Part shown: piece by piece, positions 6,005 through 37,003 of the stretch
Layout: every line of letters starts with the position of its first letter
Position numbering within the stretch: position 1 is the stretch's first letter
Assembly: GCA_049975525.1 (NCBI GenBank)
Contig: JBNGCW010000011.1
Span: 45,623 to 109,622, forward strand
From: Anaerolineae bacterium
Lineage (GTDB): Bacteria > Chloroflexota > Anaerolineae > B4-G1 > SLSP01
Direction: 5' to 3'
Length of the DNA: 64,000 nt
The notes under the pieces: model-generated
What the model was told of the DNA's origin: nothing
What the model saw: the letters and a program-made list of their open reading frames with translations, nothing else
Database searches by the model: none
Made by a program: the position numbers and the translations under genes

Positions 6005-8584
6005 ATGAGCCTGGACCGCATGATCGCGCAGCTGCGCGAGGATCGCAATTTCATACGCAACGTGACGGCGTGGCGCACGCTGCCCCGACAACAGGCCCAA
6101 ACAGCATCCTGGCCTTCCGACCTGGCACCCCGGCTGGTGGAGACAGCCCAGCAGCTGGGTATCGAGGCACTCTACGCACACCAGGCCCAGGCCGTCAAGA
6201 GAGCGCTGCACGGTGAACACGTCGTGTTGGCGACGGGGACTGCCTCCGGAAAGACGTTGGGCTACGCGCTCCCCATCCTCCACACCCTGCTCCACGATCC
6301 GTCCGCCACGGCGCTGTTGCTCTTCCCCACCAAGGCCCTGGCCCACGATCAGCTTGCGGCCTTGGAGACATGGATCGGGGCGCTGAACGTCAACCTCCCC
6401 CTGCGCCCCTACGACGGCGACACCCCCAGGCGCCACCGACCCTCTATCCGCAAAGAAGCCCGTATCCTGGTCTCCAACCCCGATATGCTGCACCTGGGCA
6501 TCCTGCCCCACCACACCAAATGGAGGCGCTTCTTCAGCGGCCTGCGCTACGTGGTGCTCGACGAGCTGCATACCTATCGGGGCGTCTTTGGCAGCCACGT
6601 CGCCAACGTACTGCGGCGGCTACGGCGGATCACGCACTTCCACGGCGCCGCCCCCCAGCTCATCGGCGCCTCGGCCACCATCGCCAACCCCCGCGCGCTG
6701 GCCGAGCGGCTGTGGGAAGCACCCGTCGCCACTGTGGAGCGCGACGGAGCTCCCTACGGACAGCGGCACGTCCTCTTCTACAACCCACCGCTGCACAACG
6801 CAGAGCTGGGTCTGCGCGCCAGCGCCACCGACGAAGCGCGTAAGCTGACCCTCCGCCTGCTGCGCGCCGGTGTGCAGACCATCGTCTTCGCCCGCTCCCG
6901 TCTTACCGTGGAGCTGCTACTGCGCGAATTGCGCGAGCACGCCGCCGGCCTCGGCCTTCCGCGCGAGGCCGTGCAGGGCTACCGGGGCGGCTATCTCCCC
7001 GCCGAGCGCCGGGCGATCGAGCGGGGATTACGCGAGGGCCATGTGCGCGCCGTCGTCGCCACCAACGCCCTGGAGCTGGGCATCGACATCGGCGCCCTGG
7101 ACGCCTCGATCCTGGTCGGTTATCCCGGCTCCATCGCCGCCACACGCCAGCAGATGGGACGGGCAGGCCGCCGCGCCGCCACCTCCCTCTCCGTCCTCAT
7201 CGCCACACCCACGCCGTTGGATCAATATCTGATCACTCATCCCGAGTACTTCTTCGGGCGCTCGCCGGAGATGGCGCGCCTCAATCCCAACGCACCGGCG
7301 CTCCTGGCCTCACACGTGACCTGCGCGGCCTTCGAGCTGCCCTTTGAAAAAGAGGAGCCCTTCGGCGGAATGGGCGACGTGAGTGCACTGTTAGAGGCAC
7401 TCGGCGAAGCGGGACTATTGTACCGCAGCGGAGAGACCTTCACCTGGATTGGGGAACAGTACCCGGCCCAGGCGATCTCGCTGCGCGCAGCCACCGCCGA
7501 CAACGTGGTCGTACAGCGTGTGGGACGTGACGGGAGCGGCGCGCAGGTGCTGGGCATCGTTGACCGTCCCAGCGCGGCGCGGCTGGTGCACGAAGGCGCG
7601 GTCTACTTTCACACCGGCGTCCCCTACCTCATCGAGGCCCTGGACTGGGAAGAGGGGCTGGCGTTGGCCCGCCCTGCCGACGTCGATTACTACACTGTGG
7701 CCGCCGAAAGCGTGGAGGTGGAACGCCTGAGGTTACTGGAGACGAAGCGCGTGGGGGAAATCACGCTGACGGAGGAGCGCGTGCAGGTGCGCAGCACGCC
7801 CACGGCCTACCGGCGCGTCAGCCTCGGCCGCCACGCCACCCTGGGCTGGGGTGAGATCGACCTGCCGCCGCAGGAGATGGAAACCGACGCCTGTCGCGTC
7901 GACATCGGTGCGGCGCCGGTCGAGGCGCTCACCGACGCGGGCGTGCACCTGGCACCCCTGGATTACGGCGCGGACTGGCCGAAGATCCGCGAGCAAATCC
8001 TGGCACGTGACGAACACCGCTGTCGATTCTGCAACGCCGAAGCGACGGACCGCCACCCGCTGGAAGTTCACCACCTCACACCCTTGCGCACCTTCCTGGC
8101 CCAGTATCCCAGAGCGGTGGCGCTGCACCTGGCCCATGCGCCCGGCAACCTGCTCACGCTCTGTCCCACGTGCCACCGCACCGTGGAACGGGCCCGTGGC
8201 GCACGCACGGCGCTCGGCGGCCTGGCGACGCTGCTCCACAATCTGGCTCCCGCCTTCCTGATGTGCGATCTCGGCGATCTGGGCACCACCGTCAACGCCC
8301 GCGATCCCATCACCCAACGGCCCTCCATCATCATCTACGACGCTATCCCCGGCGGCATAGGATTGAGCGTCAGCCTGATAGACGTGTGGCCGCAGCTGAG
8401 CGCGGCGGCACGGGAACGCGTGCAACGCTGCCCCTGCACACGGGGTTGTCCCGCCTGCGTCGGCCCCGTGGGCGAGAGTGAACCGGGCGCCAAACAAGCC
8501 GCGCGGCGGCTGCTGGAACGGCTGGAAACCCTCTGTGACCCCAACGACGTTATCTCATCCCCGCGCATCGTGCCCGGCCGCTGA
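6005..8584 (+). CDS. DExH-box helicase with C-terminal DUF1998 zinc-finger domain (MrfA/YprA-like)
   Basis: Walker A GTASGKT, DELH box and helicase C motifs are present. Cys clusters CRFCN...CPTCH and CPCTRGCPAC match the DUF1998 tail. Confidence 0.8.
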   Translation: MSLDRMIAQLREDRNFIRNVTAWRTLPRQQAQTASWPSDLAPRLVETAQQLGIEALYAHQAQAVKRALHGEHVVLATGTASGKTLGYALPILHTLLHDPSATALLLFPTKALAHDQLAALETWIGALNVNLPLRPYDGDTPRRHRPSIRKEARILVSNPDMLHLGILPHHTKWRRFFSGLRYVVLDELHTYRGVFGSHVANVLRRLRRITHFHGAAPQLIGASATIANPRALAERLWEAPVATVERDGAPYGQRHVLFYNPPLHNAELGLRASATDEARKLTLRLLRAGVQTIVFARSRLTVELLLRELREHAAGLGLPREAVQGYRGGYLPAERRAIERGLREGHVRAVVATNALELGIDIGALDASILVGYPGSIAATRQQMGRAGRRAATSLSVLIATPTPLDQYLITHPEYFFGRSPEMARLNPNAPALLASHVTCAAFELPFEKEEPFGGMGDVSALLEALGEAGLLYRSGETFTWIGEQYPAQAISLRAATADNVVVQRVGRDGSGAQVLGIVDRPSAARLVHEGAVYFHTGVPYLIEALDWEEGLALARPADVDYYTVAAESVEVERLRLLETKRVGEITLTEERVQVRSTPTAYRRVSLGRHATLGWGEIDLPPQEMETDACRVDIGAAPVEALTDAGVHLAPLDYGADWPKIREQILARDEHRCRFCNAEATDRHPLEVHHLTPLRTFLAQYPRAVALHLAHAPGNLLTLCPTCHRTVERARGARTALGGLATLLHNLAPAFLMCDLGDLGTTVNARDPITQRPSIIIYDAIPGGIGLSVSLIDVWPQLSAAARERVQRCPCTRGCPACVGPVGESEPGAKQAARRLLERLETLCDPNDVISSPRIVPGR

Positions 8585-14243: not shown

Positions 14244-14272
14244 TTGCAATTGTCTGAAAAGTTAGATATAAT
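14244..14272 (+). promoter_or_regulatory. Near-consensus sigma70 promoter TTGCAA-17-TATAAT upstream of the small peptide gene
   Basis: TTGCAA at 14244-14249, exactly 17-nt spacer, TATAAT at 14267-14272. Confidence 0.55.
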
Positions 14273-14327
14273 GGGTGGTATACAGTCGAGGGCCTGAAAA
14301 GCCGCTACTCCCAAAAAAGGAGGATGT

Positions 14328-14432
14328 ATGTACGAGGCGCCGGAAATCATCTATGAAGGCAAATTAGAAGTGCAGGCAGGCAGCCCTCTCGGAATACCGG
14401 AGGACCCCCTAGACCTGGATATGCCCGGCTAA
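14328..14432 (+). CDS. Small 34-aa peptide (MYEAPEIIYEGKLEVQAGSPLGIPEDPLDLDMPG), function unknown
   Basis: AAGGAGG RBS at 14317-14323, ATG at 14328, TAA at 14430. A dedicated promoter lies upstream and a GC hairpin (14491-14516) downstream. The peptide is below the ORF-track length cutoff. Confidence 0.5.
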   Translation: MYEAPEIIYEGKLEVQAGSPLGIPEDPLDLDMPG

Positions 14433-14490
14433 CGTTAAGAGAGGGCTTCAATCACTTCGGTGGCATTATTACCGTGGTGAACACGCAGAA

Positions 14491-14516
14491 GGGCGACTTT
14501 GCAGTCGCCCTTCTCT
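14491..14516 (+). terminator. GC-rich hairpin (GAAGGGCGAC-TTTGCA-GTCGCCCTTC) downstream of the small peptide gene
   Basis: Perfect 10-bp stem. No clear U-tract, so intrinsic termination is uncertain. Confidence 0.35.
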
Positions 14517-14920
14517 GCCTTAAGCGGTTCGTCGCTCTCTTCAAGAAAGCGCACGAGCCACCTGTGAAGATCTCACCGCCCTGGCAAACGCCCCCATGAC
14601 AGAAATCATGGTATAATCGGGAGTCGTTAAGGGTTGTCAAGCACTTGGATCAAAGGGCGACGAGAGGGTACCTCTCGCCGACCCGATCTTTTTGCCGCCG
14701 GGCGTTTCGTTTTACCGCAAAGTCTCCCCGGGAGAACGCCATATCTTCCAGGGCGGGCACTTTGTCACCTGGGCACCACACTTCAGAGGTCAAGCACATA
14801 CAGATTTGCAACTATTCGGGCGAAACGCGCTTTTTGCTACGGGAGGCGCATGCATAGAGCCGAACTCTAAAACGAAAAACGGGTGCTTCTCATCTTCTGG
14901 TCGCACAGTACCAATATATC

Positions 14921-15290
14921 CAGTGTTGACTCTGCTGAAAAAAGGTCCTAAAAATCGGATTTTTTTTCCGGAACTTGCCACTACATGTGGGAAAATTCGC
15001 GGTTGAAACCACTAGATATAGGGGATGTCTTGCTAAAAATCCGATTTTTTCAGTAGAGTCAGTGTTGACTCTACCAAGAGAAGCGGTAAAATCTCTAGCT
15101 TTGGACCTTTTTTTCAGCAGAGCGTTGGCTCTACTGAAATAACGCATAGAAATCGGATTTCTCCAAAACTCACCCCTACATGTGGGAGAATTCGCGGTCA
15201 AGATCAATAGATACAGGGGATGGCCGACTAGAAATCCGATTTTCCCCCTTTTTCAGTGGAGTCGGTGTTGACTGCCCTGAAAAAGGGGTG
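14921..15290. repeat. Two tandem MITE-like palindromic repeat units (CTGAAAAAAGG / AAATCGGATTT terminal inverted repeats; shared core CTACATGTGGGARAATTCGCGGT...ATAGGGGATG)
   Basis: Unit 1 is about 14933-15050 and unit 2 about 15122-15265. The aligned cores are about 80% identical, and both have inverted termini built on AAATCGGATTT. Confidence 0.6.
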
Positions 15291-15440
15291 AGCAGGGAGA
15301 AACGTGGGGACATGGCGTGAGGGTGTCGTGCACAAGCACGCCACATAGCATAGCACCCCTCCCTCCGCTGAAAAGTTCCTTTCAGCAGAGGCGGGGCTTA
15401 ATGCCAGGATCATCGCCCCCCGCCTGGAAGGAGGCTTATT

Positions 15441-18400
15441 GTGGGAAACAAACACGCTCGCTATGCCTGGATGGCGTTGGCTTTATCAGGCGCCATCGCA
15501 CTCCTCGGCCTGATCCAGACCGTCACCTGGGCCTCTCCTCCGGGGCCGCAGATCGAGTATCCACCGCTGCCGGAGCCCGATCCTGCCATGTCCCCCGAGC
15601 GCCTGGCCTCGCAAGTCGCGCTCTCCTCGCTGCCCGACCCCGCCGATCCCATACCGCTCCCCGAGCCCGCTTGGCGCATCGGCGTGATCACCGACGGCCT
15701 CTACGCCCTGAGCTACGCGACGTTGAACGCAGCAGGGGTGCCCGTCGCAGACGCCGACCCCGCTGCCTACCGCCTCTTCTGGCGCGGGCAGGAAGTCGCC
15801 CTGGACGCCAGCGACGTGGGCGACACCTTCGAGCCGGGCGAAGCCTTCTACTTCTACGGCGAGAAGTTCCACGGCTCGACCCAGGACGAGAAGTACACCG
15901 ACGAGAACGTCTACTGGCTGACCGTCGACGCGACCACGCCGGGCCTGCGCATGGCGACCCGCGACGTGACGCCGAATGGTCTTGGCACACCGGTCACCTG
16001 GTATACGGAGACACTGCACGCCGAGGAGAATCTCATCTGGTGGTCGCGTTGGTCGACCACACCGGGCACCGACGCCACGTGGTTCTGGGACGACGTGACG
16101 GCTTCCTCACCGGTCACGCGCAGCTACTCTGTTACGCTCTCCGACCTGGCTGCAGGGAGTCATGACGCCATGCTGATTGTGGAGTTGGCCGGACGGACCA
16201 CCAACGCCCATCGGGTCCGTTTTACGCTGAACGGCACCGTCGTGGGAGAGGCCACATGGTCCGGCGACGTGGGGCATGTGGCGACGCTCCCCTTCTCAGC
16301 AACCGCGCTGGTGGAAGGACAAAACACGCTTGATATGGCCATTCTCACCGACAGTGGAGCTCAGCGTATCTACTTGAACTGGTTCGAGATCCGGTACCCG
16401 CGAAAGATGGTATCTGTTGAGGGCGCTCTTGAATTCGGGGTTGAACTCTCCGGCACCGTTGCCGTCACGCTGACAGAATTCAGCACATCCACCCTACAGC
16501 TCTACGATGTGAGCGAGCCTCTCACCCCGACACGCTTGATCGGAGGGGAGATCACCGGATCCGGTGGCAACTATCAGTTGGCATTCCAGGATATGACCTC
16601 GACAGAGAAAATTTACCTGGCTACAGAGACGGACGTTGCCCGCTCGCCCGGCGATATCTCCTCATATACGCCATCCGCCGACTGGCTTAACCCCGGCGCA
16701 GGCGCCGATCTCATCGTCTTCGCTACATCAACCCACTTCACAGCCGTACAGCCCCTCATTGAACAGCGCCGTGCTCAGGGGATGCGAGTGCAGTTGGTCG
16801 ATGTAGCGGATGCGTATGCGCTGTTCAACGGCGGCATCGTGCACCCTGAAGCCATCCGGGCCTTCGTCACGTATGCGTACACGCATTGGCCGGGGCCCTC
16901 ACCGCAATATATCCTGCTTGTAGGCGACGCCAGTTTCAACCTCAAAGGCTACAACGAAGCGGCTTACGGCCCATGGACGCCACCCGTCATTCTCCCCTAT
17001 CTGGATTTCATCGATCCCGATCAGGGGGAGGTGCCCGTGGACGCCTATTTCGGCGACACCACCGGCGACGGCCTCCCCGAACTGGCGGTGGGACGCATAC
17101 CGGCTTACACCCCGGAAGACGTAGCGGGGTTCGTGAATAAAATCCTCGCGTATGAAAACCGCCCTCCGGCGGACTGGATGAAGCGGGCGCTCTTCGTCGC
17201 CGACGATGGAAAAACCTCCATTGAGGGATTCGCCTCAACGTTGAACCACCTGATGGCGGAGTACGTGCCCTCGACGCTGCTCACCCATACCGTCTACATT
17301 CAGGATTACTGTGGTCTCTCCGGCGCTTGCCCCGCGGCCACTGAGGCCTTGACCCAGACCTGGGGCCAGGAGGCTATCCTGCTCACCTATGCCGGACACG
17401 GGTCCATCCACCGTTGGGCCCACGAGCCACTGTTGCTCAACGAGCAGCTGGCCACGCTGCCCCCCATGGAAGGACTTCCCTTTATCATCTCCTTGGATTG
17501 TTGGGACGGCTATTGGCTCTTCCCCCCCATCTATCCTTCGCTGGGCAGTCAAGATGTGCGTTCCATTGGTGAATGGGCCACCACAGTGCTCACGGATCGA
17601 GGCGCCATAGGACTTTTCGGTCCGGCGGGGTTGGGTTATCTCTACATCGAGGATGACATGGCCGACGCGATGTACGACGCCATGTTCAACGGGGGGATTT
17701 TCCGCCTTGGAGATCTTACCCATCCGGCGCGTCGGACGGTCTCCAGCTCCTACCTGGCCCGTACCTACAGCCTCCTGGGTGATCCGACGTTGATGCTCTC
17801 CGTGTGGGACTCCCTGACGGCCACACCCTCCGGCGTCACCTTAACCGTCAATACACAGTTGACGCTCCCCGAGACCTTCGACGTCACCGGGACAACCCAT
17901 TATGGGGACGTGTTCACCATCACCCCCACCTGGACGGTCAACGACGGCACACTGAACGCCTGGGGTCTCTTCACCGCCCCCACTGAGGCGGGTTACGTGA
18001 CGTTGACGGCACACCTGGGACAGTTCTCTGTCCCCATCTCCATCCGAGTGCTGGGTGAGCCCGTCTCCATGACCGTGAGCCCGGACCCTCTGAAGATCGG
18101 TGCCGGTCTGACGGCCACCCTGCACGCCGAAGTCATAGATGCTTGGGGCAACATCCTCAACGAAACCCCAACGTGGAGCGCCGATGTGGGCGAGATCCAT
18201 CCAATGAAGGGCGTTTTCACCGCGCCGCTGCAGCCGACCCAAGGACACATTACCGCGACATTGGGCACGCTCGACGATGCGATAACCGTCGAGGTTCAAG
18301 CCCGCGAGCCCACCACCGTAAGCGTCACCCCCGCCTTGCTGCAGCTTCCCGTGGGAGCAACACAGCAGATGACGGCCACCGTCACCGACCGGTGGGGAAA

Positions 18401-18587
18401 TCCACTGCCGAACGCGACGGTACTATGGTCTACCGACGTCGGCGTGATCAATGCCCAGGGGGTATTCACCGCCGATTCAAAGCCAGGAGAAGGTTGGATT
18501 ACTGCTACCTCTCAAAGTGCCATCGGGCGGGCAGCGGTGACAGTCTATAGCTACAACATTTACCTTCCTTTAACAATACGCAACTAA
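15441..18587 (+). CDS. Secreted peptidase C25 (gingipain-like) with C-terminal Big_2/Ig-like domains
   Basis: GTG start after GGAAGGAGG RBS. Signal peptide present. Catalytic His in YAGHGS and Cys in SLDCWDG. Three Ig-like repeats follow. The protein ends ...YSYNIYLPLTIRN. Confidence 0.8.
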   Translation: MGNKHARYAWMALALSGAIALLGLIQTVTWASPPGPQIEYPPLPEPDPAMSPERLASQVALSSLPDPADPIPLPEPAWRIGVITDGLYALSYATLNAAGVPVADADPAAYRLFWRGQEVALDASDVGDTFEPGEAFYFYGEKFHGSTQDEKYTDENVYWLTVDATTPGLRMATRDVTPNGLGTPVTWYTETLHAEENLIWWSRWSTTPGTDATWFWDDVTASSPVTRSYSVTLSDLAAGSHDAMLIVELAGRTTNAHRVRFTLNGTVVGEATWSGDVGHVATLPFSATALVEGQNTLDMAILTDSGAQRIYLNWFEIRYPRKMVSVEGALEFGVELSGTVAVTLTEFSTSTLQLYDVSEPLTPTRLIGGEITGSGGNYQLAFQDMTSTEKIYLATETDVARSPGDISSYTPSADWLNPGAGADLIVFATSTHFTAVQPLIEQRRAQGMRVQLVDVADAYALFNGGIVHPEAIRAFVTYAYTHWPGPSPQYILLVGDASFNLKGYNEAAYGPWTPPVILPYLDFIDPDQGEVPVDAYFGDTTGDGLPELAVGRIPAYTPEDVAGFVNKILAYENRPPADWMKRALFVADDGKTSIEGFASTLNHLMAEYVPSTLLTHTVYIQDYCGLSGACPAATEALTQTWGQEAILLTYAGHGSIHRWAHEPLLLNEQLATLPPMEGLPFIISLDCWDGYWLFPPIYPSLGSQDVRSIGEWATTVLTDRGAIGLFGPAGLGYLYIEDDMADAMYDAMFNGGIFRLGDLTHPARRTVSSSYLARTYSLLGDPTLMLSVWDSLTATPSGVTLTVNTQLTLPETFDVTGTTHYGDVFTITPTWTVNDGTLNAWGLFTAPTEAGYVTLTAHLGQFSVPISIRVLGEPVSMTVSPDPLKIGAGLTATLHAEVIDAWGNILNETPTWSADVGEIHPMKGVFTAPLQPTQGHITATLGTLDDAITVEVQAREPTTVSVTPALLQLPVGATQQMTATVTDRWGNPLPNATVLWSTDVGVINAQGVFTADSKPGEGWITATSQSAIGRAAVTVYSYNIYLPLTIRN

Positions 18588-18590
18588 ACC

Positions 18591-20216
18591 GTGGATCTCA
18601 AAACAGCCTCCTGGTGGGACGCACTAGAGAAGCCGTGGCCCGGCACGCTGCACCTCCACGTGCGCGGGCGTAGCATGCTGCCTACCCTCCGCCCTGGCGA
18701 CGAGATCGTGGTGGAATCGGTCGCCCCCGAAGATCTCCGGCGGGGGGACTGGATCGTCGTCCGAGTCTCACAACAACTCCTGGTGCATCGTCTGCTTGAC
18801 TTCACACGCGAAGGAAGCCTGCTCACCAAAGGAGACGCGCAACGGGCTCCCGATCCTCCCTGTGCCCCCCAAGATGTGCTGGGGAAAGTCACCGCTTTGA
18901 AACGCGAGGGTAAAATAATACCGTTGCATCCTCAGAGCGCGAGTGAGAAAATCAAAACACTCTGGCATCTTATCCTGGCCAGAACCTGGTTGGGACTGAG
19001 GGGGATCGATCTGCTGATGTACAGCCTGCTGATCATCAGCCCACTCCTGTTGCCGATCCTCGTCCTCGCGTCCGTCGACCTGCTTTACTTTGAGGCAGAG
19101 GCACAGAGCAACCGGATTTACCTCACCTGGGAGACGGCCAGCGAGACCAATATGCTGGGCTTTTACGTCCAGCGCTCTCAAGAAGAGGATGCCGGATATC
19201 AACGTATCTCCGAGCTGATTCCGGCCGTGGGAGATATTGCCGGCGCTTTCTACGATTTTACCGATAGCGACATAAGCCGGGAGACGCTTTACTACTACAA
19301 ACTGGAGGCTGTGGAGACCGACAACAGCGCCGAGCTGCACGGACCGATCTCCGCCTGCCTGGGGTGTCCGACGCCAACGCCCACCCACACACCCACGCCT
19401 TCCGCAACGCCCACTTCCACCTCGACGCCGACCCCCTCCCCAAGCCCTACCGGGGAGAGCACCTCGGAGCCAGGGCAACCGACCTCCACTTTCACACCTA
19501 CACCAACGCCCGAACCCGGCGCGCCCACAGCCGTCCCTTCGGTTTACCTGCGCTTCTGGGCCGACGCCACCAGCCTCGACGCCGGTCAGTGCACCACGCT
19601 GCGCTGGCAGACGGATAACGCAGCCCGTGTCGAGCTCAACGGGGAAGGCGTGCCGGGCGGCTACAGCGAGGAGCGGGTCTGTCCCTGCACCGATCAGACC
19701 TACACGCTGCGCGCCGTCGGTCATGACGGGGACATCGAAGAAAGTACCATCTCACTAGACATCAGTGGCGCCTGCACACCCGTGCCGCCCGGCAGCACCG
19801 CCACACCGACGCGCACGCCGCGCCCGACCCAGACCTCCACCTCACGCCCCCCGCGCACCCACGCCGCCGCGACGGCGACGCCGCGACCGACCGAAACGCC
19901 CCGTGACGCGCAGACCGCCGCGACGCCGACGCCGTCGCCCACCGCCCATGCCGACTCCCCCCTGTCAACGCCGCAAACCGTCACGACCACGTCAACCCCG
20001 TCCCCCGAGCTCTCATCTTCGTCCACGCTCACCATCGCCGGGGGTCTGCCGACGCGCGCCCCCGCCCCCATCGGTCAGAGTGACATCCAGAACGTGAACA
20101 CACGTTCCGGCCGCGCGCCCGGCTGGCTCATCATCACGCTCATCAGTGGCACCGGCTTGATCGGCGCGGGCGGCTGGGGCATCTGGCGCGCCTGGAAGGA
20201 GAGAGAGGGCGCATGA
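18591..20216 (+). CDS. SipW-like ER/archaeal-type signal peptidase (S26B) fused to TM segments, FN3/Ig-like domains, Pro/Thr linkers and a C-terminal TM anchor
   Basis: GRSMLPTL...GDEIVV...GDWIVV...VHRLL matches the Ser/His-dyad SipW/Sec11 pattern, with no catalytic Lys box. The C-terminus is hydrophobic with a basic tail. The GTG start lies 3 nt after the upstream stop. Confidence 0.6.
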   Translation: MDLKTASWWDALEKPWPGTLHLHVRGRSMLPTLRPGDEIVVESVAPEDLRRGDWIVVRVSQQLLVHRLLDFTREGSLLTKGDAQRAPDPPCAPQDVLGKVTALKREGKIIPLHPQSASEKIKTLWHLILARTWLGLRGIDLLMYSLLIISPLLLPILVLASVDLLYFEAEAQSNRIYLTWETASETNMLGFYVQRSQEEDAGYQRISELIPAVGDIAGAFYDFTDSDISRETLYYYKLEAVETDNSAELHGPISACLGCPTPTPTHTPTPSATPTSTSTPTPSPSPTGESTSEPGQPTSTFTPTPTPEPGAPTAVPSVYLRFWADATSLDAGQCTTLRWQTDNAARVELNGEGVPGGYSEERVCPCTDQTYTLRAVGHDGDIEESTISLDISGACTPVPPGSTATPTRTPRPTQTSTSRPPRTHAAATATPRPTETPRDAQTAATPTPSPTAHADSPLSTPQTVTTTSTPSPELSSSSTLTIAGGLPTRAPAPIGQSDIQNVNTRSGRAPGWLIITLISGTGLIGAGGWGIWRAWKEREGA

Positions 20217-22213
20217 GACGCGGGCTCGTCCTGCTCCTGGTCATCTTGATCAGCGGCTGCACTGCCCAGGCCGCCGACCCGCCGACCGCCTCTCCGTCAG
20301 GCGTCTGGTTCGTGGAGCTGGCGCAGACAGGCGCAACCTGGCTTTCGCCGCAGACGCTGCGTGACCTGGGCCTGGACACCGACGCCGCGCCCGCGCTGCG
20401 CCTCAGCATGGGCGCGCGCGATCTGCCCTATCTCCCCCTGCCCGCCCGCCGGGGCTGGGGCGTGCTCTTCTTCGCTCCCAACGGCACAACGCGCTACACT
20501 AAACGCACCGTCGTCCGGCTGGAACCCGGCGTCGCAGGCGACCGCATGCCCTCCCAACCCGCCGAGACCACCGCCTCACCGGCGCCCGCCCTTGCGACGG
20601 TCACCTGGGAGCAGGACATCCGCTATCTCCCGCAGGCCACCGCCGACGTGCCCTGGCTCTGGGAACCCATCTACACGCCCGGCGCTTTGGAGCAGACCGT
20701 CGTGCTCACCGACGCGCAGCCCGGCCCCATCACCGCGATGGTGCGCCTCTGGAGCCACACTGGCTTCCAGCCGCAACCCGACCACCGCGCCGTGCTCGCC
20801 TGGGAGGGCACCCCCGTCGGAGAGTGGACGTGGAGCGGGCAGGGCATGCAGACGCTCACCGCCACCTGGCCTCTCGAAGAGAGCGGCGGCGAGCACACCC
20901 TGACCCTGCAGACCCCGGCCCTGGTCGAGGACAAAGTCGCCGTCGTCTGGATCGACGGCTGGGAGATCACCTACCCGCGCCGGGTGACCCAGGGCGTCTA
21001 CACGGCAGCCGGTGACGCGCTGCGCGCGTCGCCCCAGGCCCGCGTACTCGACGTGACCGACCCCTTCGCGCCGCTGGATCTCGGCGCCGTCCCGGAAAAC
21101 GGCGTCATCGGCACGCTGCGCGGGCACCGCTACTGGATCGGCTCGCCGGAGCAGGCTCAGACGCCCGTGTCCCTGCGTCCCGCCGCGCTACTGGATACCG
21201 CCGCCCTCAGCGCGACGGAGTACCTGGTCATCGCGCCGCCCGCCTTCCGGCCGCCGATTCAACCTCTGGTCGATCACAGGAAGGCTTCCGGCCTCAACGT
21301 GGCCGTGGTCTCACCCCAGTCCATCTACGACACCTTGGGAACCGGGCAACCCGACCCCGCGTCCCTGCGCGCCTTGATCCAGACGCTACCCGACCTGCGC
21401 TACGCACTGCTGGTCGGCGACGCGACCACAGAGCCCTGGGGCTACGACGGCGAGGACGGCGCCCTGCGCGTCGTCACGCCCTTCACGCGCACCACCGTGC
21501 TCGGCGAGACGCCCGCCGACGCCCTCCTGGGCACAGACGCGACCGGACATCCGCGCGTGGCCGTGGGTCGCTTCCCCGCCGCAAGCGTCGCCGAGGTCGA
21601 GGCCATGGTGGCGAAGACACTGGCCTGGGAAGCGAACGCCGCCGAGGCCTCATCCGTGCTCCTCAACGACGACGAACAGGAGTTCGTCAGCGCGGTGGAT
21701 GCGCTGACCGCCCTGCTCCCAGAGGGAGATGATGCGCCGCGCCTGGACGCCGGCGACCCGACGTGCCGCGACACGCTGCTGAGCACGTTGAGCGACGGGC
21801 CTCGCGTGCTCACCTACGTCGGACACGGCAGCTTGCGCCAGCTGGGCGATGAGGGTGTGCTGCTGATCGAGGATGGGGCTATGTGGGACGATCCCTCGGT
21901 CGTCGTGGCATGGACCTGTCTCGCGGCACACTTCACCCACACGCGCCAGCCCTCCATGGCCGAGGTCTGGCTGGCGCAGCCGCAGGGTGGCGTGGCGGCG
22001 TTTCTTGGTCCCGTCGGCGAGACGACGACGTTTGAACAAAAACCCTATGCCGCCGCTTTCTACGCGGCGCTGCAGGAGACGCCCCGGCTGGGCGACGCCT
22101 GGCTGACCGCGCTCCAGACCCCAGGCTCGCGCGACGTGCGCTGGGGCTTCACCATCCTGGGCGATCCAGCCTTGCACCTCCCCGGCACGTCGGCGCCCGA
22201 GCGATCCCCATAA
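20213..22213 (+). CDS. Peptidase C25 family lipoprotein (paralog of 15441..18587)
   Basis: The ATGA start overlaps the upstream stop. Lipobox LLLVILISGC. His in YVGHGS and Cys in AWTCLAAHF. The N-terminal domain is paralogous to the first C25 protein. Confidence 0.75.
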   Translation: MRRGLVLLLVILISGCTAQAADPPTASPSGVWFVELAQTGATWLSPQTLRDLGLDTDAAPALRLSMGARDLPYLPLPARRGWGVLFFAPNGTTRYTKRTVVRLEPGVAGDRMPSQPAETTASPAPALATVTWEQDIRYLPQATADVPWLWEPIYTPGALEQTVVLTDAQPGPITAMVRLWSHTGFQPQPDHRAVLAWEGTPVGEWTWSGQGMQTLTATWPLEESGGEHTLTLQTPALVEDKVAVVWIDGWEITYPRRVTQGVYTAAGDALRASPQARVLDVTDPFAPLDLGAVPENGVIGTLRGHRYWIGSPEQAQTPVSLRPAALLDTAALSATEYLVIAPPAFRPPIQPLVDHRKASGLNVAVVSPQSIYDTLGTGQPDPASLRALIQTLPDLRYALLVGDATTEPWGYDGEDGALRVVTPFTRTTVLGETPADALLGTDATGHPRVAVGRFPAASVAEVEAMVAKTLAWEANAAEASSVLLNDDEQEFVSAVDALTALLPEGDDAPRLDAGDPTCRDTLLSTLSDGPRVLTYVGHGSLRQLGDEGVLLIEDGAMWDDPSVVVAWTCLAAHFTHTRQPSMAEVWLAQPQGGVAAFLGPVGETTTFEQKPYAAAFYAALQETPRLGDAWLTALQTPGSRDVRWGFTILGDPALHLPGTSAPERSP

Positions 22214-22229
22214 CAACAGAAAGGTTATC

Positions 22230-23012
22230 ATGAACGAACAACTCTCCGGTGAAGAGCGACAAGTCGCGCCGCACACAGGCCCCACCATTGACGGCGCGCC
22301 CGTCTCATACGTGGTCACCGCTGCGAGCATCGTACTGGCCCTGGCCTTCGTCCCACTCTCCATCGTGCTCACTTCGGGGAAGAGCTTCCCCCTGAGCCAA
22401 AGCGTCTACCCGCTGATGGGCTGGCTGCTGGGACCGGTCGCCGGCGCGGTGGCCAACGCCGTAGGCGCGCTGGTGGGGGTGATGCTGGCGCCCCACACGA
22501 CGACGATGCCCGTCGCCACGGTGCTGGGCGCAGCCTTGGGCGGGTTAGCCGCCGGCGCCATGACGGTCGAAAAGGAGCGCCGTTGGTGGTGGCTACCCCT
22601 TTCCCTTCTCTTCATGGGGGCTTACGGCCTGTACGGCGTGCGCGCCATCGTCCAGAACGGCGCCGCCTGGTATGCCGTGCTCCTCGGCTCTTTCATCAAC
22701 TGGTCGGCGCTGCTGCTCTTCGTCCTGCCGACGCGCCGATGGATCGGACGCCGGCTGCAATCCAGGGATTTAAGGCGCCTCGGCGCGGCGCTCTTCCTGG
22801 GCACCTGGAGCGCCGCCGGCCTGACGCATCTGAGCACGGCCACCGTGGTTTACTTCTTCTCGAACTGGCCCAACGAAGTGTGGCTGGCGATCGCACCGCT
22901 GGCGCCTTTCGAACACCTGATCCGCGCCTTTGTAGGCACCGTCATCGGCGTCGGTGTGATCAGCGGCCTGCGGGCCACCAGCCTGGTCAAAGCGTTGCAC
23001 GCCGTCTACTGA
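22230..23012 (+). CDS. Polytopic membrane protein, unknown function
   Basis: About 6-7 TM helices. Lies directly downstream of the C25 module. Confidence 0.5.
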   Translation: MNEQLSGEERQVAPHTGPTIDGAPVSYVVTAASIVLALAFVPLSIVLTSGKSFPLSQSVYPLMGWLLGPVAGAVANAVGALVGVMLAPHTTTMPVATVLGAALGGLAAGAMTVEKERRWWWLPLSLLFMGAYGLYGVRAIVQNGAAWYAVLLGSFINWSALLLFVLPTRRWIGRRLQSRDLRRLGAALFLGTWSAAGLTHLSTATVVYFFSNWPNEVWLAIAPLAPFEHLIRAFVGTVIGVGVISGLRATSLVKALHAVY

Positions 23013-28501: not shown

Positions 28502-28547
28502 TCCCCCGAAGAAATCCGATTTTTATGAGTTGACTCTACTGAAAAAG

Positions 28548-36943: not shown

Positions 36944-37003
36944 GATGACTCGCCTGAAAAAATCGAGACAAATCGGATTTTTAGTCGACCATCCCCTGTG
37001 TGT
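36944..37003. repeat. Truncated inverted copy of the MITE-like element (CTGAAAAAATCGAGACAAATCGGATTTTT...CAGGGGATGGTCGAC)
   Basis: The reverse complement matches the ...CAGGGGATGGCCGACTAGAAATCCGATTTT segment of unit 2 at 15213-15245. Confidence 0.5.

Follow-up and report, generated by a model that had tools for sequence, protein, structure and literature searches.

A family of short Anaerolineae peptides with a lasso-type leader block and candidate modification partners

In a 64,000-nucleotide stretch of DNA from an Anaerolineae bacterium (GenBank GCA_049975525.1, contig JBNGCW010000011.1, positions 45,623 to 109,622), hereafter the window, we studied a small open reading frame (ORF) at 14328..14432 (+ strand), whose product is the 34-residue peptide MYEAPEIIYEGKLEVQAGSPLGIPEDPLDLDMPG. 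A first-pass annotation had singled it out for its expression signals and for an N-terminal motif resembling that of lasso-peptide leaders. We find that it belongs to a large family of Anaerolineae peptides which are built like precursors of peptides that are ribosomally synthesized and modified post-translationally (RiPPs) and which, in related genomes, adjoin genes for a putative modifying enzyme and a PqqD-type RiPP recognition element (RRE). All coordinates refer to the window and loci of the family carry L numbers.

The peptide gene and its expression signals

The elements of the gene are:

14244..14272, + strand: sigma-70-type promoter TTGCAA-17-TATAAT, matching 10 of 12 consensus positions, with boxes positioned alike in L006, L019 and L015
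14317..14323, + strand: Shine-Dalgarno (SD) sequence AAGGAGG; 74 of 75 family copies have an SD-like sequence ahead of the start codon
14328..14381, + strand: leader-like half M1-G18, Y(-17) E A P(-14) E I(-12) I Y E G(-8) K L E V Q A(-2) G(-1), marked by its conservation, codon-level purifying selection and lasso-leader register; predicted docking site for a PqqD-type RRE
14382..14432, + strand: core-like half S19-G34, SPLGIPEDPLDLDMPG, and stop codon; S/T(+1)-P(+2), followed by a variable, acidic, Leu/Pro-rich tail
14487..14514, + strand: GC-rich hairpin with a perfect 12-bp stem and a 4-nt loop

The promoter, which had been described as perfect, is present, but with only four of six matches in the -35 hexamer the description overstates it. 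Promoter-like sites are more frequent than expected in this 2.5-kb region (5 observed, 0.5 expected). In the three loci named above, a -35-like TTG(T/C)AA and the TATAAT keep their position while the surrounding DNA has diverged.

The ribosome-binding site, 4 nt 5' of the ATG, the 34-codon ORF and the hairpin all proved to be as first annotated. The hairpin begins 55 nt past the stop codon, and the 108 nt following this codon (14433-14540) have a folding energy of -46.4 kcal/mol (z = -4.6). Since no U-tract follows the stem, the terminator scan made no call there and the hairpin is not a textbook intrinsic terminator; placed between the peptide gene and the operon downstream, it probably terminates transcription in part or acts as a stabiliser. 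Stems of 10-20 bp are found past the stop codon at many homologous loci, some of them with T-runs. Rfam searches of the whole window and a tRNA scan returned no matches and thus no known RNA element.

The peptide family and its conserved block

As a query against Pfam and NCBIfam, the peptide retrieved no family at E <= 10. A homology search with the peptide padded by 7 in-frame upstream codons yielded 5 close relatives (83-94% identity), and a genome scan gave 27 loci, of which the 26 genuine ones are all in metagenome-assembled genomes (MAGs) of Anaerolineae/Chloroflexota. A metagenome scan with a narrower alignment (A3) added 41 further loci, and an exhaustive profile search 137 representatives at the 50% clustering level; the homologous small ORFs that the first-pass annotation had proposed to look for thus form a conserved family. 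Altogether we found the family at about 65 separate genomic loci, nearly all from Anaerolineae/Chloroflexota MAGs. Two candidates were rejected as members: L039 (Acidobacteriota), a chance match within a larger protein, and P0006, a 635-residue repeat protein. In all sources, members are labelled 'hypothetical protein' at most, and the accessible literature on the family, on ScmC/SynChlorMet and PF27840, and on C25 in Chloroflexi contained nothing relevant.

To the question whether these ORFs are coding, the DNA of the conserved block gives a clear answer. In 69 distinct copies, the entropy at the three codon positions is 0.59, 0.48 and 1.50 bits, so that third positions are about three times as variable as first and second ones. 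For the invariant Pro, Ala and Gly all four codons are in use, and for the invariant Ser both the AGY and the TCN set. This is the pattern of selection on the amino-acid sequence, and the comparison of synonymous with nonsynonymous change, suggested earlier as a check, accordingly fits a coding sequence. Judged from sequence conservation, the ORF is a genuine, translated small gene of a large, unnamed Anaerolineae family of 30-60-residue peptides with a RiPP-precursor-like build.

We anchored the family alignment on the invariant Ala-Gly (AG) and numbered positions from the AG|S junction, which we assumed to be the cleavage site. All 137 representatives align without indels over a 19-residue block with the consensus Y-x-x-P-x-[IV]-[IV]-[YF]-E-[GA]-x-L-E-[VI]-[QR]-A-G-[ST]-P, conserved as follows:

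-17: Tyr, 135/137
-14: Pro, 136/137
-12: Ile/Val, 137/137
-11: Ile/Val, 124/137
-10: Tyr/Phe, 116/137
-9: Glu, 129/137
-8: Gly/Ala, 109/137
-6: Leu, 127/137
-5: Glu, 129/137
-4: Val/Ile, 114/137
-3: Arg/Gln, 115/137
-2: Ala, 135/137 (Thr in 2)
-1: Gly, 135/137
+1: Ser/Thr, 136/137 (Thr in 25)
+2: Pro, 123/137

The motif that had drawn attention to the window peptide, Y2-x-x-P5-x-I7-x3-G11, is therefore the family-wide invariant part. Its register is exactly that of lasso leaders, in which YxxPxL always spans -17 to -12 (PMC10368454): the Tyr, Pro, Ile/Val and Gly/Ala of the family fall at -17, -14, -12 and -8.

Outside the block the peptides differ. Ahead of the Tyr, the N-terminal extension comprises between 1 and more than 40 residues. 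Behind Ser-Pro, the median tail length is 16 residues; the tail is rich in Leu (16%), Pro (16%), Asp (13%) and Gly (11%), contains almost no Cys and carries a net charge of about -3. Tail types range from SPLGIPDPLDL-like to PFPWDW-like, with basic tails in some tandem copies, and several loci and MAGs have two copies with differing tails. Tandem pairs in six loci (L063, L066, L067, L070, L074, L078), which lie in contexts without C25 genes, combine a common leader with contrasting tails, acidic SPFAMPDGLEEVLGQ in one and basic SPLVKIFGKSVKGLTDPARLWSK / GKRLLFPDLTDPAGLWKKK in the other.

This architecture is that of a RiPP precursor, as far as it can be read from the alignment. The general features of RRE-dependent precursors are found together here: a short ORF, a conserved recognition sequence, a more variable C-terminal part and, in homologous loci, a co-localised RRE and candidate tailoring enzyme. 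We also considered a double-glycine bacteriocin leader of the kind processed by C39 peptidases. The AG junction is present, but no C39-ABC gene recurs among the neighbours, and relative to the double-glycine consensus the E/L spacing of the family is off by one.

Partner genes in related loci and in the window

Clustering of the ORFs around all loci for recurrent neighbours brought out a trio of genes with overlapping start and stop codons, located 5' of the peptide gene in 18 loci, and an operon of C25 peptidases located 3' of it. By component, the ScmC-like gene of the trio was found in 18 loci, the PqqD gene in at least 9, the K2 domain in 17 and C25 in at least 15. Flanks of 2 kb or more on either side are available for 14 loci, 9 of which have one or both partner sets nearby; in L035, L040 and L081 both stand in one locus, separated by a gene for an extracytoplasmic function (ECF) sigma factor.

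The first gene of the trio, K2, encodes a protein of about 160 residues with an FN3-like domain flanked by two transmembrane (TM) segments. The third encodes a PqqD-family protein of about 92 residues, which passed the gathering score of PF05402 in 9 of 9 tested cases. Among solved structures, the lasso B1 chaperones TbiB1 (1e-11) and TfuB1 are closest to it, closer than PqqD itself, and its best NCBIfam match is TIGR04248 (2.9e-13).

The second gene encodes a P-loop protein of about 270 residues with weak matches to ScmC (13 of 13), HprK_rel_B (12 of 13) and HprK_rel_A (11 of 13), those to the HprK-related models (1e-5 to 1e-7) being far below the 200-bit cut-offs. It falls into the precomputed Pfam family PF27840, 'ScmC', and conserves an H-x-A-G motif, a Walker A motif GxSGSGKS(T) and a DD motif. 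An AlphaFold2 model (pLDDT 95.7) has a PEPCK-type fold (Foldseek E 1.8e-8, TMq ~0.6), which is common to HPr kinase; apart from PEPCK, a profile search of PDB sequences hit nothing but generic P-loop segments. The more than 550 homologues are all unnamed and all from Anaerolineae/Chloroflexota. Within the peptide family, the ScmC-like clade tracks the leader subtype, EVQ versus EVR.

Adjacent ScmC-family and PqqD proteins are also a feature shared with the SynChlorMet (SCM) cassette (TIGR04248-04251), which comprises ScmC, the PqqD protein ScmD and two radical SAM/SPASM proteins, and TIGR04249 matched in 13 of 13 cases. In contrast to that cassette, the scanned loci have no radical SAM/SPASM genes (ScmE, ScmF), and all scores are far below the equivalog cut-offs. 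To our knowledge, the SCM cassette itself is uncharacterised.

The C25 operon, in the order C25, SipW-like protein with K2 domain, C25, follows the peptide gene in at least 15 loci, often after a gap of only 17-360 nt. In the window, it follows after a 1-kb spacer:

15441..18587, + strand: secreted PorU-like Peptidase_C25 of 1048 residues with N-terminal signal peptide and Big_1 domain (Pfam C25, 9.8e-66); first gene of the operon that comes after the peptide gene in many relatives
18591..20216, + strand: fusion of 541 residues comprising a SipW/S24-like signal-peptidase domain, a TM segment, an FN3-like (K2) domain, a Pro/Thr-rich linker and a second TM segment (Pfam/NCBIfam, clusters C2/K2)
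20213..22213, + strand: second Peptidase_C25, 666 residues, with a lipoprotein signal (LISGC; Pfam, NCBIfam, signal prediction)
22230..23012, + strand: polytopic membrane protein of 260 residues with weak similarity to S-components of energy-coupling factor transporters; follows the second C25 gene also in L006 and L019 (cluster C8/K13)

A metallophosphoesterase gene comes next, and the genes 5' of the peptide encode PFOR, a DHO-dehydrogenase-like protein and a cobalamin adenosyltransferase. Both C25 proteins are extracytoplasmic by their predicted signals, one having a signal peptide and the other a lipobox. They resemble PorU, the C25 sortase of the T9SS (type IX secretion system), in this location and in matching the NCBIfam model T9SS_sortase PorU over about 700 residues (1.2e-67). 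They differ from it in that the score of 228 bits is below the 420-bit cut-off, that no T9SS genes or C-terminal domain signals were seen and that the tie to the peptide is one of synteny only; we know of no T9SS in Chloroflexota.

Other genes in family loci encode sortase, DUF4012, DUF11, LTD, a TMEM260-like glycosyltransferase, SpaA-like surface proteins and GH13, and an ECF sigma factor with a putative partner recurs. Beside peptide and C25 genes, the surface proteins at L032:5062-6399 and L034:3667-4605 (clusters K5, K7) end in a hydrophobic segment and a basic tail (..LILRKHRKAQI, ..FFTRRRKFIL) that resemble a sorting signal, which hints at a sortase-like system of PorU-like C25 proteins in Chloroflexota. 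In a single lineage (L009-L011), ScmC and C25 are both absent and a DUF4418-FtsX-FtsX-ABC_tran set, a possible exporter, precedes the peptide gene by 52 nt, with multicopper-oxidase genes adjoining; only there does an FtsX/ABC set stand next to it.

Most of the unusually long spacer of the window is filled by an AT-rich, repeat-dense block (14900-15300). Two units, each about 195 nt long and 79% identical over 86 nt, lie in it; each has palindromic arms AAAAATCGGATTTTT / AAAAATCCGATTTTT about 70 nt apart, together with TTTTTTCAGYAGAG repeats. The block resembles an inserted repeat element or a group of regulatory sites. The 16-mer CTAAAAATCSGATTTT, a dispersed short palindromic motif with further copies at 28511-28526 and 36969-36984 (1-2 mismatches), has 7 matches in the window where 0.01 are expected. 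The part of the spacer nearer the peptide gene has an extended -10-like TGgTATAAT (14609-14617, + strand), a TTGACA-16-GATTAT (14640-14613, - strand) and, 3' of the former, a short GC stem with a T-run near 14660-14695; a small independent transcript could arise at 14607-14700. Unrelated to the peptide is an 859-residue DEAD/Helicase_C protein at 6005-8584, in which an HNH nuclease domain is inserted and an MrfA Zn-binding domain is present.

The trio itself is not part of the window: searches of the 64 kb with tblastn for ScmC-like, PqqD and other partner proteins gave no match, and a hidden Markov model search of all six frames gave no second peptide copy. Peptide genes at a distance from the trio are found elsewhere in the family: where a MAG has two peptide loci, the trio accompanies only one (L018 versus L016; L029 versus L028), and trio loci without a peptide gene exist as well (L082, L083). 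The organism of the window therefore probably encodes the trio elsewhere, to act in trans.

A candidate for the trans-acting modification genes of this organism is L083 (Logan SRR28875795_21112), which comprises K2-ScmC-PqqD-ECF sigma and lacks a peptide gene. The source of its assembly is SRR28875795, and SRR28876213 likewise contains the ScmC-like protein of L083; both are among the five samples in which the exact peptide of the window occurs. The G+C contents are 62.8% for L083 and 61.8% for the window, and the tetranucleotide correlation is 0.964, a value no higher for fragments of the window's own lineage.

Service in trans to dispersed precursors by a distant enzyme is the logic of prochlorosin-type RiPPs. 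The present peptides share with these the conserved leader, the divergent C-termini, the multiple copies per genome and the location of many copies far from the enzyme; they differ in the enzyme family and chemistry, and their tails are Cys-free and less variable.

Candidate function and competing explanations

Our best reading, in which we place slightly more belief than doubt, is that the peptide is the precursor or substrate of a new RRE-guided modification system. Its YxxPxI strand would dock on the PqqD chaperone, as lasso leaders do on B1 proteins such as TbiB1 and TfuB1, and the chaperone would present the peptide to the ScmC-like phosphotransferase. This enzyme would act on the invariant Ser/Thr(+1), Ser19 in the window peptide, because its spacing from the recognition block is fixed. 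As to the reaction, phosphorylation is the best and most economical guess, by analogy with BsfK, an HprK-like kinase that phosphorylates a core Ser only when the B1 RRE is present (PMC10368454). No lasso ring would be formed, and in the organism of the window the trio would act from another place in the genome. In the most speculative step, the extracytoplasmic C25/SipW machinery would process the modified peptide or work together with it.

A precursor peptide that depends on an RRE and pairs a lasso-type leader with a different set of enzymes may represent a new class of RiPPs. We put forward only tentatively, and at less than even weight, the full proposal: that such a class is widespread in uncultured Anaerolineae, that in it a lasso-type leader and a B1-like chaperone are re-used with an ScmC-family phosphotransferase in place of the lasso protease and cyclase, that the invariant Ser/Thr at the junction is modified, and that the product feeds or controls a PorU-like C25 'sortase' system which builds the Chloroflexota cell surface.

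Several observations weigh against a modified precursor. As the chaperone and kinase genes are absent from the window, the peptide is linked to them only through homology and synteny in other genomes, and the assignment of L083 to the same organism is no more than suggestive. Five of the 14 well-flanked loci have neither partner set nearby. The ScmC family is a putative enzyme with a candidate activity: besides the low scores against HprK-related models, in fold it matches PEPCK rather than a peptide kinase. The modified residue is deduced solely from its invariance and the interchange of Ser and Thr. The tail is only moderately variable, SPLGIPDPLDL being recurrent, and the whole peptide could be functional without a division into leader and core. 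Finally, the C25 proteins are predicted to be extracytoplasmic and the peptide has neither a signal peptide nor a recurrent dedicated exporter, which leaves its functional tie to the operon unexplained.

The strongest competitor, though in our judgement unlikely, is an unmodified small protein that serves as binding partner or regulator of the C25/SipW sorting locus, for instance by titrating PqqD/ScmC or within an ECF-sigma circuit. The tight synteny with the C25 operon and the recurrence of the ECF sigma factor and its putative partner in the same loci would fit such a role. So would a conservation that is highest in the N-terminal block and SP-x-G and extends, in part, to a PDPLDL tail, and the fact that the attached enzymes are putative, none having proven activity. 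However, PqqD-family proteins are peptide chaperones for modifying enzymes, and the P-loop protein keeps an intact Walker A motif and an acidic motif. Enzyme substrates, moreover, typically show such a strict alternation of Ser and Thr at one position, a fixed spacing and multiple gene copies whose tails diverge. The first-pass annotation had listed an independent small protein among its fall-back readings, which we rank below another of them, the orphan RiPP precursor, as this comes closest to our own.

Distinctly unlikely is a second alternative, in which the peptide is an exported substrate of the PorU-like C25 peptidases, cut at AG|S or transpeptidated in the sorting of surface proteins, with the trio only preparing or escorting it. 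In its favour, PorU belongs to the C25 family and is a transpeptidase, C25 genes come directly after the peptide gene with the short gaps described above, the K2 domain is common to the trio and the SipW-like protein of the operon, and neighbouring surface proteins end like sorting signals, in a TM segment and a basic tail. A peptide that has no signal peptide and no conserved exporter is difficult to reconcile with this route, and in several loci trio and peptide occur with GH13 or other genes and without C25.

We consider it more improbable still that the peptide is a true lasso precursor, for which a distant cyclase and B2 protease would cut after Gly18 and join Ser19 to Glu25 or Asp26. Besides the leader register and the kinship of the PqqD protein to lasso B1 proteins, the core of the window peptide offers E7 and D8, and D/E at core positions 7-9 are found in 101 of 137 tails (74%, against 57% expected from tail composition). 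Lasso clusters with kinase genes exist, and non-Thr residues at -2 (Ala, Ile, Val) have been reported in lasso precursors, Ala(-2) by bioinformatic prediction only (PMC10368454).

The genes and the tails speak otherwise. The window contains no Asn-synthetase-like cyclase, no transglutaminase-like B2 protease and no PqqD-type RRE, as the first-pass annotation had recognized for the surroundings of the gene. Neither cyclase nor protease recurs among the 25 most frequent families listed from 140 neighbouring ORFs in about 65 loci, where radical SAM and C39-ABC genes likewise do not recur, and neither was found in the annotated contexts of L026, L040 and L081-L083. The B1, B2 and C genes of known lasso clusters sit together. 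Further, 36 of the 137 tails (26%) have no D/E at 7-9, P0076 and P0140 being devoid of acidic residues, Thr occupies core position 1 in 25 of 137, and many tails have no bulky plug residues. The Thr usual at -2, whose absence had also been pointed out, is replaced by Ala throughout nearly all of the family. Because of the lack of a recurrent cyclase or B2 protease, the tails without D/E at 7-9 and Ala(-2), the macrolactam that the first-pass annotation had envisaged is not supported, and on genomic evidence the family is very probably not one of lasso peptides.

The closest lasso relatives by build are the precursors of phosphorylated lasso peptides, of the paeninodin type and BsfA/BsfK/BsfB1 from Bradymonas sediminis (PMC10368454). 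They share YxxPx(L/I/V) at -17..-12, a small residue at -1, documented non-Thr residues at -2, a B1-type PqqD protein and a P-loop protein of HprK/PEPCK fold. In contrast, their B2 protease, cyclase and ABC exporter recur in no locus of the present family, whose core starts with Ser/Thr and Pro, a quarter of whose tails are unable to form a 7-9-residue macrolactam, whose P-loop protein fits ScmC better than HprK-related models and which is linked to C25/SipW genes.

Next to no credence is due to the view that the ORF arose by chance or is non-coding and regulatory, for example as an attenuator or leader of the C25 operon. The shortness of the ORF, the long intergenic region and the hairpin 3' of it would fit this view, which is refuted by amino acids that are conserved while synonymous sites vary freely and is at odds with family copies in unrelated genomic contexts, the near-universal SD sequence and the empty Rfam search.

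If modification of the peptide by the trio is true, the uncharacterised ScmC family would gain a candidate substrate and a testable activity, and the recognition module of lasso leader and B1 protein would operate outside lasso biosynthesis. This would bear on the evolution of RiPP pathways by enzyme swapping around a conserved docking module. Since the peptides are short and Cys-free, the hypothesis is open to direct testing. Anaerolineae are abundant in sludge and sediments and hard to culture; for them, the finding would tie a small modified peptide to a conserved, unstudied surface locus of C25 and SipW-like proteins, to which relatives add sortase, DUF4012 and ECF sigma factor genes.

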